This document shows positions 30,039 through 54,528 of a stretch of 64,000 bases of DNA, piece after piece. This DNA comes from Candidatus Pelearchaeum maunauluense (GTDB taxonomy: Archaea > Thermoproteota > Nitrososphaeria_A > Caldarchaeales > Caldarchaeaceae): assembly GCA_030059675.1 (NCBI GenBank), contig JANVYQ010000003.1, positions 64,001-128,000 on the forward strand, read 5' to 3'. Position numbers and translations under genes: made by a program. Under the pieces are notes generated by a model. It was not told the origin of the DNA and searched no databases. It saw only the letters and a program-made list of their open reading frames with translations. Each line of letters starts with the position of its first letter. Positions within the stretch are counted from its first letter, which is position 1.

Positions 30039-30131
30039 GGGGCCGTGGTCTAGTGGCTATGACGCCGCCCTTACACGGCGGAGAGCGGCAAACATGCCCG
30101 CAAGCCGTGGGTTCGAATCCCACCGGCCCCA
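30039..30131 (+). tRNA. tRNA-Val(TAC) with a 20-nt non-canonical intron at 45/46 (30084-30103)
   Basis: Acceptor GGGGCCG/CGGCCCC, anticodon arm CCGCC-CTTACAC-GGCGG, T-loop TTCGAATC. BHB central helix GCGG/CCGC with bulges AG|A and AA|G. Confidence 0.92.
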
Positions 30132-30135
30132 CCTT

Positions 30136-30972
30136 CTAGTCTTTTTTGTATGCTCTGATGACCAGCGGAAGAGCTGTCATGAGATATGCGAGCTGTATTG
30201 CTAGTCTCCCTATCTCGGCTTTTACCGTATAGCCGAATAATACCGCAAATATCGAGCCTATGACGTTTTTGTCGTGTAGTAGGCTGTCTGTTGGTATAGG
30301 TAGCGCGTATGCCGTTTGTGCGAACCAGCCGAGTGAGATTCCGCTATCCTCGGCAAATTCTATAAGCTCATGCGTCCCGTAGCCAGCTAGACCACCGGCC
30401 AAAAGTACCAATAATATGCTGGTTATGTAAAAGAACCGTCTTATGTTTAGACGCATTCCTATGAAGAATAGAGCATATGCTAACGCGACTGCTACAGCTG
30501 CTCCTAAGAAAGAACCTATTGATGATGATAGTGGGTTTCGGACTAGGAATGGAATTATGAAGAGCACTGTTTCAAGACCTTCGCGGAATACTATTACGAA
30601 TGAAAATGCTGTAAGTCCTATCACTGTTCCGCGCGTAGTAATCTGTTCCACCCTGCTCTCGATTTCTGTTTTTATTGATTTAGCCTTGGTGGCCATCCAG
30701 AGTATCATGGTTGAGAGCACGACAACTGCCAGCCATGCGGCTACTCCTTCAAACAGTGCCTTTGTAGCACCACTAAGAGCGCCATATAGCATCCAGCTTA
30801 GCGAGCCCAACAATATGCTTGCGAATAGAGCAGTATAGACGCCGTACTTAACGTATTTCGTGAGTATTTTCCTGCCTGTTTTTGAGAGATACGCGAGAAT
30901 TATTGAGACGATGAGCGCAGCTTCAAAACCTTCACGCAGTGTTATGAGCGCTTCTGCGAATACCATTCTCAT
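30136..30972 (-). CDS. FTR1-family high-affinity iron permease
   Basis: Two RExxE motifs (REGFE, REGLE) in TM helices. Confidence 0.93.
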   Translation of the reverse strand: MRMVFAEALITLREGFEAALIVSIILAYLSKTGRKILTKYVKYGVYTALFASILLGSLSWMLYGALSGATKALFEGVAAWLAVVVLSTMILWMATKAKSIKTEIESRVEQITTRGTVIGLTAFSFVIVFREGLETVLFIIPFLVRNPLSSSIGSFLGAAVAVALAYALFFIGMRLNIRRFFYITSILLVLLAGGLAGYGTHELIEFAEDSGISLGWFAQTAYALPIPTDSLLHDKNVIGSIFAVLFGYTVKAEIGRLAIQLAYLMTALPLVIRAYKKD

Positions 30973-31038
30973 CTACACCTTGTGAGCCAGTTTTTGCCGA
31001 CCACGTCTATAACGGTGTTATAGTTCTATTTAACCTTC

Positions 31039-31066
31039 ACTTTGTGAAATAATTATTTCACAAAGT
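31039..31066. promoter_or_regulatory. Perfect 28-bp palindrome, candidate operator
   Basis: ACTTTGTGAAATAA|TTATTTCACAAAGT, adjacent to a minus-strand TATA-like TTAAATA (31027-31033). A related GTGAAAT..TTCAC site is at 31090-31111. Confidence 0.75.
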
Positions 31067-31144
31067 TACTCACAAGGTATTTAATTACCGTGAAATATAG
31101 GTAATCTTCACACCGTTAAATAGTTAATCGCGGTGTGAAAATTG

Positions 31145-31885
31145 ATGATGAACCTGAGGGCGGAGAAGATAATTCCAGGAGTTAGGGCTGTGCTTGCCCG
31201 TCTTTTGGTTGAGAAGTATGGCTTGAAGAAGGTTGAGGTTGCTAGAGCTCTTGGCTTGAGTCCGCAGGCTGTTACTCAGTATCTTACGGGTGCGCGTGCT
31301 GGGGATGCGGCGGAGATGCTAAAGCACCAACAAGTATTGACGTTGATAGAGGATTTGGCAGCCAAGATAGCGGCAAGAGGAGGCCAGCTTATGCAGGCCG
31401 AGATAATAGACCTGGCTTTCGAGATAGCTTCGATAATCCAGTCAAAGCCTGAGGAAGAAAAGGCAGAAGCTATTCCAACTGATGTTAGAGAGAAGTTGCT
31501 GAAGACCCTACGAGCAAGGCTTCAGGCCGAGCAGGAGGCTGCCGAGCTGTTTATGGGTGTTGCGGCGAAGATGCGTAATGATTTGAGCAGACTTCTATTT
31601 AGGCAGATAGCCAGCGACAGCATAAGACACGCAGACATAGTAATGGCCACAATATCAGCGATAGAGCGGGGTGAAAACACCCCAGTAGATTTCCCAGAAG
31701 AGAAAGAGCTTAAGAAATTGCTAGAGAATGAAGAAACGGCTCATGTCCATAGTCTTGAAGATGTTAGGCACCTAATACAGAACGATGTCATAGGGCTGCT
31801 CATAGATTCTATTGAGGCTGACGAGGAGAAGCACGCGAAGATACTGGCTAAACTGATTAGCATTAAACAGCAGAAAAAGCAGTAA
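31145..31885 (+). CDS. Putative iron-responsive regulator: COG2522/ThiR-type HTH plus ferritin/rubrerythrin-like domain
   Basis: IPGVRAVLARLL..YGL...EVARALGLSPQAVTQYL.G.R HTH. C-terminal E..DSIRH and E..DEEKH paired diiron-type motifs. Confidence 0.75.
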   Translation: MMNLRAEKIIPGVRAVLARLLVEKYGLKKVEVARALGLSPQAVTQYLTGARAGDAAEMLKHQQVLTLIEDLAAKIAARGGQLMQAEIIDLAFEIASIIQSKPEEEKAEAIPTDVREKLLKTLRARLQAEQEAAELFMGVAAKMRNDLSRLLFRQIASDSIRHADIVMATISAIERGENTPVDFPEEKELKKLLENEETAHVHSLEDVRHLIQNDVIGLLIDSIEADEEKHAKILAKLISIKQQKKQ

Positions 31886-31889
31886 ATAT

Positions 31890-32120
31890 CTACTCTTCTG
31901 GGGTTTTTAGGCCGAGCTTCTGCCGTAGCCTAACTATCCTCTCCCTATGCTCGCGTACGAGGGGCCCGATATCTTTGGGTGCCTCATAGCCATGCTTCTC
32001 GCGCATAGAAATCTTGAACAAAGCCCATCTGCGGGCCAGCTCGTCAAGCTCCTCTGAAGTTATCTCAGCCCGTAGAATCTCTTTAGCTATGCTATCAAAC
32101 TCGTCCCTACCATCTTGCAT
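31890..32120 (-). CDS. Hypothetical protein (76 aa, helical)
   Basis: ORF fills the gap between convergent and divergent neighbours; no motif recognised. Confidence 0.6.
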   Translation of the reverse strand: MQDGRDEFDSIAKEILRAEITSEELDELARRWALFKISMREKHGYEAPKDIGPLVREHRERIVRLRQKLGLKTPEE

Positions 32121-41421: not shown

Positions 41422-41471
41422 AGCCTAACACCGTTAGGTGATAATGTTAGTTTTTGATAAGTTTTTCGCGG

Positions 41472-53478: not shown

Positions 53479-54528
53479 TTAAATCCTTGAAGAGAGCCGC
53501 GTGTGGGGGGCTATGGTCATTTGAGGCAATTCCGCGCCGTTGAGCCTTAGTCCCGCGCCTATGTGCGCTCCCTCCCCAACTATAACGCTCCGCAGGCTAG
53601 CGCCATCATCTATAACAACATCCTCCAACACTATGGAGGACTCTATAACAACGTTAGCTCCTATCCTAACGTTATCACCTATGAATGATGGTCCTATAAC
53701 TGTTGAGCCGCTGCCTATGCGTGTCCCTTCACCTATGATGCAGGGGCCCGCTAGTTTGGTATCCTTACCCATGTAACATGGCCGCTTAAGGCTTACTTTA
53801 CTTCCCAGCCTGCGTGTTAGGAAATAGGCGTTGGCCTGGAGGTAGCTTGGTGGGCTTCCCACATCAAACCACCAATCCCCAGAATCCACATAAACCCCTA
53901 TCCTCCTGCCGCTTTCAGCCATTATGTTAAGCGCGTCAGTAAGCTCATACTCCCCGCGCGGAGATGGCTTCAGACTCTTAACCACATCTAAGGTCTCAGA
54001 TGGAAGTATATAGACACCGCTATTGACTGGGCCGCTTTCACCCGCCTTCTCTAGGATGCGCTCCAGAATGTTATTGCTGGCTCGTATTATGCCGAAACGC
54101 TGGCCTGAGTCAACCCTAACACCCATGAGTGAGCCATCGTATTTGCCGCTTCTATGAAATTCAATAAGCCGCTCCAGAGCTTCTGGCGTGAGTGTTATAT
54201 CCCCATAAACTACCAGGAACTCCCTGACGTCGCTTAGATATTCTGAAGCAGCCGCCAACGCGTGGCCTGTTCCCAGAGTCTTCTCTTGATGGATAAACCT
54301 AATGTCAAGGTCTTTAGCCCTCTCGCCCACCAGAGCCATAACCTTCTCGGAGAGGTAGTTTATGATTATTCCAACCTCCCTCACTCCTGCGTGGCGTAGG
54401 GCGTCAAGCACCATGAGTATAACTGGTCTTCCAGCTACTGGGAGGAGAGGCTTAGACCTAGTATCGCTAAGCGGCCTTATGCGCTTGCCCAGGCCTGCCG
54501 CGAAGACAACAGCCTTCAAAGCCATCAC
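53479..54528 (-). CDS. NDP-sugar pyrophosphorylase with C-terminal left-handed beta-helix
   Basis: AAGLGKRIRPL...KPLLP, LGTGHA, SPRGEYELTDA. Confidence 0.9.
   Translation of the reverse strand: MMALKAVVFAAGLGKRIRPLSDTRSKPLLPVAGRPVILMVLDALRHAGVREVGIIINYLSEKVMALVGERAKDLDIRFIHQEKTLGTGHALAAASEYLSDVREFLVVYGDITLTPEALERLIEFHRSGKYDGSLMGVRVDSGQRFGIIRASNNILERILEKAGESGPVNSGVYILPSETLDVVKSLKPSPRGEYELTDALNIMAESGRRIGVYVDSGDWWFDVGSPPSYLQANAYFLTRRLGSKVSLKRPCYMGKDTKLAGPCIIGEGTRIGSGSTVIGPSFIGDNVRIGANVVIESSIVLEDVVIDDGASLRSVIVGEGAHIGAGLRLNGAELPQMTIAPHTRLSSRI

Follow-up and report, generated by a model that had tools for sequence, protein, structure and literature searches.

A candidate iron-sensing transcriptional regulator combining helix-turn-helix and ferritin-like domains in archaea

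The window analysed here is a stretch of 64,000 nucleotides (nt) from Candidatus Pelearchaeum maunauluense of the order Caldarchaeales (contig JANVYQ010000003.1, positions 64,001 to 128,000), in which a gene for a protein of 246 amino acids (aa) is divergent from a gene for an iron permease of the FTR1 family. The protein, referred to as the regulator, belongs to a conserved archaeal family in which a helix-turn-helix (HTH) domain is fused to a ferritin-like domain. Judged from its sequence, its partner genes and the elements in its promoter region, the regulator is a strong candidate for an iron-sensing gene switch of a new kind; it would be a metal-dependent repressor based on a novel sensor module. 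We give slightly better than even chances to the reading that it is one of a family of archaeal transcription factors that respond to metal and have not been described before, with repression of iron uptake as the model. The comparisons show the domain architecture, the distribution of the family, its gene linkage and the conservation and positions of the motifs, and they are joined by a predicted dimer; that a metal is bound, that this metal is iron, that the protein represses and which sites it occupies are what we infer.

The regulator gene (31142-31885, plus strand) encodes 247 aa if read from TTG 31142 and 246 aa if read from ATG 31145; the latter is likely the start, because the homologs are 245-246 aa long. 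The protein consists of an XRE-type HTH (residues 6-58), two linker helices (62-99) and a predicted four-helix ferritin-like domain (112-245). Residues 22-52 match Pfam HTH_3 (PF01381) with 28.4 bits, above the cut-off of 23, and residues 124-238 match Pfam Rubrerythrin (PF02915) with 22.0 bits, 0.8 bit short of the cut-off of 22.8; the precomputed combination PF02915+PF01381 is present on 4 of 45 homolog clusters (P0005, P0007, P0013 and P0034). A preliminary description of the locus had assigned the HTH to the ThiR kind, and this is borne out by its homology to the HTH of the ThiR-like HTH+ThiN protein of the same genome. Pfam detected no ThiN domain in the regulator, and no Fur, DtxR or Rrf2 model of Pfam or NCBIfam matched it up to E=1.

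In profile searches of the PDB, the family profile (A1) matched a lambda-repressor-like HTH protein (4.6e-4), the Pyrococcus furiosus COG1633 protein 2fzf (0.008) and, with residues 115-240, the mini-bacterioferritin 9qq4 (0.0098); a search of the PDB with the single protein sequence returned only a de novo four-helix design (0.037) and a bacterioferritin (0.75). The AlphaFold2 model of the regulator has a mean predicted local distance difference test (pLDDT) score of 90.6 and contains the HTH helices, the linker helices and four long helices at residues 112-245 with pLDDT >90. Foldseek found no match in the PDB at E<=1e-3, and its best weak rows were ferritins, bacterioferritin (Bfr) and rubrerythrin. 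In the wide VIA-align comparison, generic helical hairpins dominated over residues 106-180 with Z 8-10, which is the range common for helical proteins; a rubrerythrin-domain cluster of the ESM Atlas matched structurally with a template modelling (TM) score of 0.83 by row over 133 residues. The C-terminal half of the regulator is probably a distant rubrerythrin/ferritin-like domain; the fold searches by themselves point no further than to ferritin/rubrerythrin-like helices.

Seven residues of this domain that could bind a metal, i.e. E129, D158, H162, E196, D226, E227 and H230, are invariant in 26 of 26 aligned sequences with 32-59% identity. The canonical diiron ligand set consists of E, ExxH, E and ExxH. 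In the profile alignment to mini-bacterioferritin, E227-x-x-H230 falls on the second ExxH; the first motif reads D158-S159-x-x-H162, in which Ser159 sits at the position of the canonical helix-B ExxH glutamate and the invariant D158 is one residue earlier. Because S159 stands in for that glutamate, the ligand set is ferritin-like but not canonical. The preliminary description had proposed an HTH fused to paired diiron motifs and had anticipated that structure prediction would return an HTH plus a ferritin-like bundle with a complete ligand set: the fusion, the E227/H230 motif and, in the model, the HTH with four long helices all stand, but the first motif is non-canonical and the set is thus incomplete in the canonical sense.

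The homodimer was predicted with Fe ions included. Its interaction prediction scores from aligned errors (ipSAE) were 0.84/0.84/0.83 as compared to 0.00 for the best control, the partner pLDDT did not fall below 78, and at least 89% of the contacts were common to the runs. Of 30 known homo-pairs used for calibration, 20 reached the mark, as did 1 of 23 single chains; these counts apply only roughly here since an alignment of our own was used and Fe ions were present. The entire interface in the model is formed by the C-terminal domain, and the tightest cross-chain pairs are D158-D226', H230-D158' and H162'-D226. That D158/H162 of one chain meet D226/H230 of the other suggests that dimerisation could be metal-bridged. 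Ligands are likewise paired between subunits in domain-swapped rubrerythrin/sulerythrin and in encapsulated ferritins.

The family occurs in several groups of archaea. A word-indexed search returned 45 relatives of the regulator with 33-100% identity, which are unnamed or labelled 'hypothetical', 'HTH domain-containing' or, by JGI, 'predicted transcriptional regulator/rubrerythrin'. Scanning 1.84 billion representatives with a hidden Markov model (HMM) gave 52 clusters at E<=1e-30, essentially all of 230-275 aa and full length, and also yielded stand-alone C-terminal domains as well as many HTH-only relatives; in the ESM Atlas, archaeal clusters of 138, 94 and 87 members carry the same two Pfam families. 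From GTDB species genomes, 67 loci with the fusion were recovered. By record title, they belong to Caldarchaeales/'Caldarchaeum', Conexivisphaerales, other Nitrososphaerota, Bathyarchaeia, Thermoplasmata and Micrarchaeota; with the exception of two, they are labelled as metagenome-assembled genomes, and one of the two (L052) has a single-cell-style isolate name (SCGC). Within the order of the window, 43 of 61 sampled genomes have one copy of the regulator, and four genera have none. Neither an HTH–ferritin/rubrerythrin regulator nor its operator was described in the result listings and abstract openings returned by a full-text literature search. Similarly, the text covered by a term search of a 2024 Chem Rev review on metallostasis contained no occurrence of 'ferritin-like domain', 'ferritin-like', 'diiron' or 'rubrerythrin-like', and the text covered in the RbkR paper (PMC5397151) did not mention ThiR, ferritin or rubrerythrin.

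What accompanies this family from locus to locus is a short palindrome, TAAC-N3-GTTA, which the preliminary description had overlooked and which is a candidate for a family-wide operator. In the window, the first of these boxes (TATAACGGTGTTATA, 31008..31022, with the core TAAC-N3-GTTA at 31010-31020) is a 15-bp palindrome located 4 nt downstream of the TATA-like box of FTR1 and 35 nt upstream of the FTR1 ATG; its position is that of a repressor site, because it lies between the TATA-like box and the start. The TATA-like box of FTR1 (31027-31033, minus strand; TATTTAA on the plus strand, i.e. TTAAATA on the minus strand) presumably has a promoter role, which we assume from the archaeal TATA consensus, and the TATA-like box TTAAATA at 31116-31122 on the plus strand is the putative counterpart for the regulator. 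In a repeat search, 31027-31033 and 31115-31123 were inverted copies of each other. The regulator transcript is probably leaderless. A degenerate TAAC box with one mismatch (TCACACCGTTA, 31108..31118) abuts the TATA-like box of the regulator and corresponds to a second, exact box in the Caldarchaeum loci.

Exact TAAC-N3-GTTA is present within -260..+10 of the regulator in 36 of the 67 loci. In total, 49 sites lie in these upstream regions (2.74/kb) as compared to 9 sites elsewhere in the loci (0.018/kb), i.e. sites are ~150-fold denser upstream, and eleven control palindromes with scrambled halves gave 0-4 sites each. We also scanned pairs of the half-sites F (YGTNAW) and R (WTNACR) at spacings of 0-21, for which the ratio of inside to outside length is 0.035. 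The arrangement R-N1-F (WTNACR-N1-YGTNAW) had 59 occurrences inside and 11 outside (43 loci), F-N8-R (YGTNAW-N8-WTNACR) had 25 and 10 (23 loci), and F-N9-R had 11 and 6. The half-sites differ between clades, with CGTTAT and CGTGAA in Caldarchaeales, TGTAAA in Conexivisphaerales/Geocrenenecus (9/9 loci) and TGTTAA/CGTTAA elsewhere; no simple code linking recognition-helix residues to base 4 of the half-site emerged, the sole correlation being a Q->H change in Geocrenenecus with YGTAAA. The box goes with the fusion even where the divergent gene is not for a transporter (MTHFR; L050 and L051). Among five genomes searched, including Micrarchaeota, the strict box was found in three from outside the Caldarchaeales (G009-G011), where it occurs only at the regulator locus, and there was none in G004 or G012.

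Two more exact matches to TAAC-N3-GTTA are present in the window, at 41426-41436 (C14:105426 in the genome), in a short gap between open reading frames (ORFs) for small membrane proteins near one for a large membrane protein, and at 53646-53656 (C14:117646), inside an ORF for a nucleotidyl-transferase-like protein. Both are probably chance matches.

A second element, which appears to be promoter-specific, is the perfect palindrome ACTTTGTGAAATAATTATTTCACAAAGT at 31039-31066 with arms of 14+14 that are 100% complementary and the core TGTGAA-N8-TTCACA, i.e. the F-N8-R arrangement of half-sites. It is upstream of both TATA-like boxes and restricted to Caldarchaeales. In the genome of 1,786,704 bases, it is the longest perfect ungapped palindrome, and the runner-up has arms of 12; a genome scan for TGTGAAAT-N0-8-ATTTCACA, as had been proposed, returned a single occurrence, at this promoter, and the reversed control was absent. 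The spacer of 169 nt between the divergent genes contains six GTGAA/TTCAC words as compared to 0.28 expected; none of 2000 shuffles reached six, and no 169-nt stretch of the genome exceeds this number. In addition, the spacer contains an imperfect element, CGTGAA-N12-TTCACA (31089..31112), that includes GTGAAAT...TTCAC (31090-31111), and TGTGA-type half-sites are present at 30981, 31070 and 31134. These features, as well as the flawless palindrome next to the TATA-like box of FTR1 and the TTAAATA box, had been noted in the preliminary description and were all recovered.

The same description had taken the palindrome as the operator. It is a conserved cis-element, since 11 of the 15 Caldarchaeales loci have an exact YGTGAA-N8-TTCACR, in which the arms are kept, the spacer varies and the element is always located between two TAAC boxes; it does not, however, follow the family as the TAAC box does. 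In four other genomes of the order, its only intergenic occurrence is at the regulator promoter, and four extra matches are in coding sequence. The palindrome at L001, a locus titled Candidatus Pelearchaeum sp., has a symmetric compensatory change from ACTTTG/CAAAGT to ACTCTG/CAGAGT. The fusion protein may use the palindrome as a site of high affinity or of alternative geometry, or another factor may bind there. We rejected the reading as an RNA hairpin, because the GTGAA/TTCAC arms are kept in 11 loci while the spacer varies and because the palindrome lies between divergent TATA-like boxes. An inverted repeat TTACC-N10/11-GGTAA around GTGAAATATA (31084-31104), in which the imperfect element is embedded, reads TTGCT...AGCAA in L001, with both arms changed, a comparison of two sequences that is anecdotal.

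The putative cargo gene of this control region, FTR1 (30136..30972, minus strand), encodes 278 aa, of which residues 5-270 align to Pfam FTR1 (PF03239; E=1e-65). Two RExxE motifs in transmembrane helices are, we assume, the hallmark of FTR1/EfeU iron permeases, and both were found in the translation, as REGFE and REGLE; the preliminary description of an FTR1 with two RExxE motifs divergent from a protein of ~246 aa is thus accurate. The permease scored 197.8 bits against NCBIfam TIGR00145 (EfeU/Ftr1 subfamily; cut-off 303.8) and 175.8 bits against the EfeU equivalog NF041756 (cut-off 255), below the cut-off in both cases; it is an FTR1-family member and not an EfeU equivalog. The ORF listing of the locus contains no EfeO or EfeB neighbour, and a genome search identified no other FTR1.

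For the gene neighbourhoods, we clustered the ORFs of the 67 loci and annotated the cluster representatives with Pfam or NCBIfam. A metal-cation transporter gene is present in 35 of the 67 loci (union of Nramp, FeoAB, FTR1, ZIP-like and ABC-3/ZnuA), in agreement with the linkage to iron and metal transporters that had been suggested as a check. Nramp accounts for 9 loci, FeoA-FeoB for 3, and FTR1 for 4 plus a weak fifth plus the window. A ZIP-like permease is encoded in 10 loci; a search of the PDB with the profile of this cluster gave nothing meaningful, and the assignment was settled by Pfam on individual members, of which 7 of 10 match Zip (best 1.5e-11). Ten Caldarchaeum loci have a convergent ABC-3/ATPase/ZnuA operon, and one locus encodes an SBP_bac_8/11/6 binding protein. 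Finally, an operon for a PhnCDE-like ATP-binding cassette (ABC) transporter is present in 15 loci, all from Caldarchaeales, and is the divergent neighbour in 14 of them; it scored 241 bits with the NCBIfam PhnE equivalog (cut-off 216.7), a phosphate/phosphite/phosphonate transporter family. The loci with metal-cation, Phn-like and binding-protein genes together number 41 of 67.

The Phn-like operon and FTR1 exchange for each other. The regulator of L001 is 98% identical to that of the window, and synteny extends on both sides; between the gene for tRNA-Val(TAC), which marks the far edge of this exchangeable transporter slot in both loci (30039..30133 of the window, plus strand; ARAGORN), and the TAAC box, L001 has a three-gene Phn-like ABC operon where the window has FTR1. 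Homology between the two sequences resumes exactly at the TAAC box, and the whole control region onward is kept (30039-31022 compared with 1310-3870 of L001). A search of the genome of the window detected neither a Phn-like binding protein or permease nor Nramp or FeoB. The sharing of one regulated slot by FTR1 and the Phn-like operon hints that the Phn-like importer may meet the same need of the cell as FTR1.

In the genome of the window, ATAACRNYGTTAT occurs at four sites, all of which are intergenic and promoter-proximal (two in the reversed control): at the regulator locus, 22 bp before sufC, ~12 bp before sufB and before a gene for a rhodanese. The gene sufC was assigned by NCBIfam SufC (333 bits; cut-off 212.8) and sufB by SUFBD_core (1.5e-87). 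Five further genomes gave 45 strand-hits to the box pattern and 6 in the control, and in 20 inspected loci of these genomes the box is located 16-22 bp before sufC (four genomes), 7 bp before sufB (four) and in the spacer between the regulator and the ABC operon (four). All 18 genomes from the family of the window hold 3-4 sites (60 in total; control 7). Across the order, 101 sites (control 13) were counted in 43 genomes with the regulator and 47 (control 23) in 18 genomes without it, of which the four genera wholly lacking it contribute 37 (control 20; 14 genomes); because the genomes are kin, these counts represent a tendency and not a test. Given that the same type of box is present directly upstream of sufC and sufB, iron–sulphur (Fe-S) cluster assembly is probably co-regulated. 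Further TAAC boxes of this genome are located at C16:5542-5554, upstream of a double-rhodanese gene, and at C14:49029-49039, between a gene for a CoA-transferase III and one for an indolepyruvate/2-oxoacid:ferredoxin oxidoreductase-like protein; the genes beside them are possible extra members of the regulon.

In the model that we favour, the C-terminal domains of two chains would pair such that E129, D158 and H162 of one chain face E196, D226/E227 and H230 of the other. A metal, with Fe(II) as the likeliest choice, would link the chains to each other and thereby make the DNA-binding dimer more stable. The loaded dimer would bind palindromes of YGTNAW half-sites, chiefly the TAAC-N3-GTTA box. 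On the TAAC box of FTR1, it would block recruitment of the polymerase, and the degenerate box would allow it to act at its own promoter. When metal is plentiful, iron uptake by FTR1, or by Feo, Nramp, ZIP or the ABC operon, would be shut off together with the regulator itself. In Caldarchaeales, sufB and sufC would also be repressed, possibly jointly or in competition with a Cys-rich paralog.

Several observations weigh against this model. For the protein, the Rubrerythrin match is under the Pfam cut-off and the fold searches yielded weak or helical-hairpin matches; with S159 in place of the helix-B glutamate, a classical diiron site is not assured; and the dimer model may owe its scores to likeness to solved rubrerythrin-type dimers. 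For the gene contexts, the commonest partner in Caldarchaeales (15 loci) is the PhnCDE-like operon, which by its sequence belongs to a family for oxyanions and not iron, and ~26 of the 67 loci have no transporter neighbour and present unrelated or truncated contexts (MTHFR, TackOD1, phosphoesterase, MobA-like). For the sites, the Conexivisphaerales and Geocrenenecus loci have no TAAC boxes and contain YGTAAA/YGTGAA sites instead, and no clade motif was seen upstream of the suf operons in the two genomes inspected, G002 (Conexivisphaerales) and G003 (Geocrenenecus). Moreover, genomes without a full-length regulator (E<=1e-20) keep boxes at FTR1 (L128), at sufB (L132 and L133) and in the gap between iscU and iscS (L134).

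These genomes without the regulator encode short HTH paralogs of 108-173 aa with a Cys-rich C-terminus (C..C...C.H...C..C). Genes of the iscS, iscU or ThiF/MoeB-like kind are often neighbours of those for the short paralogs (L136, L137, L138, L140, L141, L142 and L146), some of which carry a TAAC box in their own promoter; we regard the short paralogs as candidate sensors of Fe-S status. Because boxes occur in the absence of the fusion and at the promoters of paralogs, we conclude that the TAAC box is an operator type of this HTH family and not of the ferritin fusion alone. The genome of the window itself has a Cys-rich paralog of 124 aa (G000:C5:39328-39702), and this paralog, rather than the fusion, could therefore occupy the suf boxes, which is a further point against the model. 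In a Micrarchaeota genome (G004, locus L093), an ORF of 105 aa (3-320) with the same type of HTH is located directly upstream of sufC (327-1160) on the same strand.

A wider scheme that takes in these paralogs is possible and is put forward tentatively. In this scheme, the fusion would represent a class of prokaryotic metal sensor that had so far gone unnoticed: the carboxylate/His site between the two ferritin-like chains would be a gauge of iron, or of iron plus an oxidant, that drives the HTH directly onto DNA, the Cys-rich paralogs with their HTH of the same type would read Fe-S status, and both would act on a shared TAAC code for uptake (FTR1, Feo, Nramp and ZIP) and for SUF/ISC. Labile iron and cluster status would thus converge on one operator code in several archaeal phyla from which no model organism is in culture.

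Alternatively, the two types of protein could divide the labour, with the fusion as a local regulator on YGTGAA-N8-TTCACR and the TAAC boxes at FTR1, sufB and sufC belonging to the Cys-rich paralog as a putative Fe-S sensor. A local regulator fits with the palindrome being confined to this promoter in each Caldarchaeales genome examined, and the TAAC boxes at FTR1, sufB and iscSU in fusion-less genomes and at promoters of Cys-rich paralogs point in the same direction; in other phyla, two adjacent boxes give the same geometry in the form YGTTAA-N8-TTAACR. By contrast, TAAC boxes accompany the fusion in 36-43 of the 67 loci across phyla, including the MTHFR loci, single boxes without an N8 partner are common, and G009-G011 encode short paralogs too and yet have the strict box only at the locus of the fusion. 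We consider such a division unlikely.

Somewhat less likely still is that the regulator senses redox state, peroxide or O2, i.e. that its metal site changes oxidation state in a PerR-like switch that induces SUF and adjusts metal uptake. The domains most similar to its C-terminal half are of the rubrerythrin and bacterioferritin type, which react with H2O2 or O2, and SUF as well as metal transporters are typical members of bacterial oxidative-stress regulons. The direct neighbours, however, are importers (Feo, FTR1, Nramp and ZIP) and not peroxidases or catalases, no gene for peroxide defence is beside a box in the loci examined, and the altered ligand set (S159) speaks against a catalytic diiron centre.

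Finally, it is improbable that the ferritin-like domain is a mere dimerisation scaffold, or that it senses Mn(II), another cation or an oxyanion tied to the PhnCDE-like transporter: the Phn-like operon in 15 loci (divergent in 14), the Nramp, ZIP and ZnuABC-type partners that suit Mn or Zn as well as Fe, and the incomplete ExxH would be in line with this, but seven putative ligands kept without exception in 26 sequences, with identities as low as 32%, are hard to square with a scaffold, FeoAB, FTR1 and sufBC are iron-specific contexts, and FTR1 takes the place of the Phn-like operon in the same regulatory slot.

The other candidate owners of these sites in the genome are of the DtxR type, and no Fur gene was found in this 94%-complete genome. 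There are two DtxR-type genes, one of which precedes a ZIP-like gene (C2:349362-350493) while the second is located between a gene for a metal ABC ATPase and a gene for a Dps-like protein. Two tandem TTTAGCC-N2-GGCTAAA palindromes, a pair that resembles the classical DtxR/IdeR-type iron box, lie between the ATPase gene and this second DtxR gene (C14:171165-171198; L123 1180-1215). DtxR is unlikely to own the TAAC box or the 28-bp palindrome, since the double palindrome at the DtxR-type gene is a different one and neither DtxR gene has a TAAC or GTGAA element nearby. On the other side of the regulator, an ORF of 76 aa (31890-32120, minus strand) without a family match is convergent with the regulator gene, and small ORFs of 79-102 aa also come after the regulator in L001, L002 and L005.

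To our knowledge, iron regulation is essentially unknown in Nitrososphaerota/Caldarchaeales, Bathyarchaeia, Micrarchaeota and many Thermoplasmata. If the favoured model holds, the metalloregulators would gain a new sensor fold, namely a ferritin-like site between subunits by which a transcription factor reads metal. TAAC-N3-GTTA would then be an operator code from which iron and Fe-S regulons could be predicted in uncultured archaea, and the swapping of uptake systems (FTR1 or the ABC operon) into one regulated slot would be explained.

The textbook families of iron sensors are Fur, DtxR, Rrf2 and a few others. In its proposed logic, the regulator resembles DtxR/IdeR and Fur in that a metal-loaded dimer would sit on a palindromic operator overlapping the promoters of iron-uptake genes; E. 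coli Fur also controls suf genes. It differs from them in having no sequence or domain kinship and a putative carboxylate/His site between two ferritin-like half-bundles, and the DtxR-type box of the genome is TTTAGCC-N2-GGCTAAA. In architecture, the regulator is similar to ThiR, the archaeal thiamine regulator composed of an HTH and a ThiN domain: the genome's own HTH+ThiN protein of 322 aa matches positions 7-60 of the family profile (E=4e-6), and in both cases an HTH is joined to a domain borrowed from the pathway under control. By contrast, the sensor domain of the regulator is ferritin/rubrerythrin-like and not ThiN, and its neighbours are metal transporters and not thiamine genes.

Rubrerythrin/sulerythrin and encapsulated ferritins are four- or two-helix ferritin-like proteins with metal sites between subunits. 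The helical domain of the regulator shares with them the pattern E...xxH...E...ExxH and, in the predicted dimer, the union of ligands from two chains. With VIA-align 2, it aligned to P. furiosus rubrerythrin 1nnq (Z 8.8; 59 residues, root-mean-square deviation (rmsd) 1.5 Å), to EncB (Z 9.1; 66 residues, rmsd 3.4 Å, and 64 residues, rmsd 2.8 Å) and to sulerythrin (Z 8.6; 122 residues, rmsd 12.6 Å), all of which are values common for helical proteins. Unlike these proteins, the regulator is fused to a DNA-binding domain, has S159 for one ExxH glutamate, has no rubredoxin domain and is, as far as can be told, neither an enzyme nor a storage cage. Finally, FBXL5 and BTS-HRZ, the iron sensors of animals and plants, use a hemerythrin domain to set the stability of ubiquitin ligases. 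The likeness proposed here is that of a helical-bundle carboxylate/His metal site serving as the iron gauge of the cell; the eukaryotic sensors differ in having a hemerythrin instead of a ferritin-like fold and in acting through ubiquitin ligase stability, whereas the regulator would bind DNA directly.

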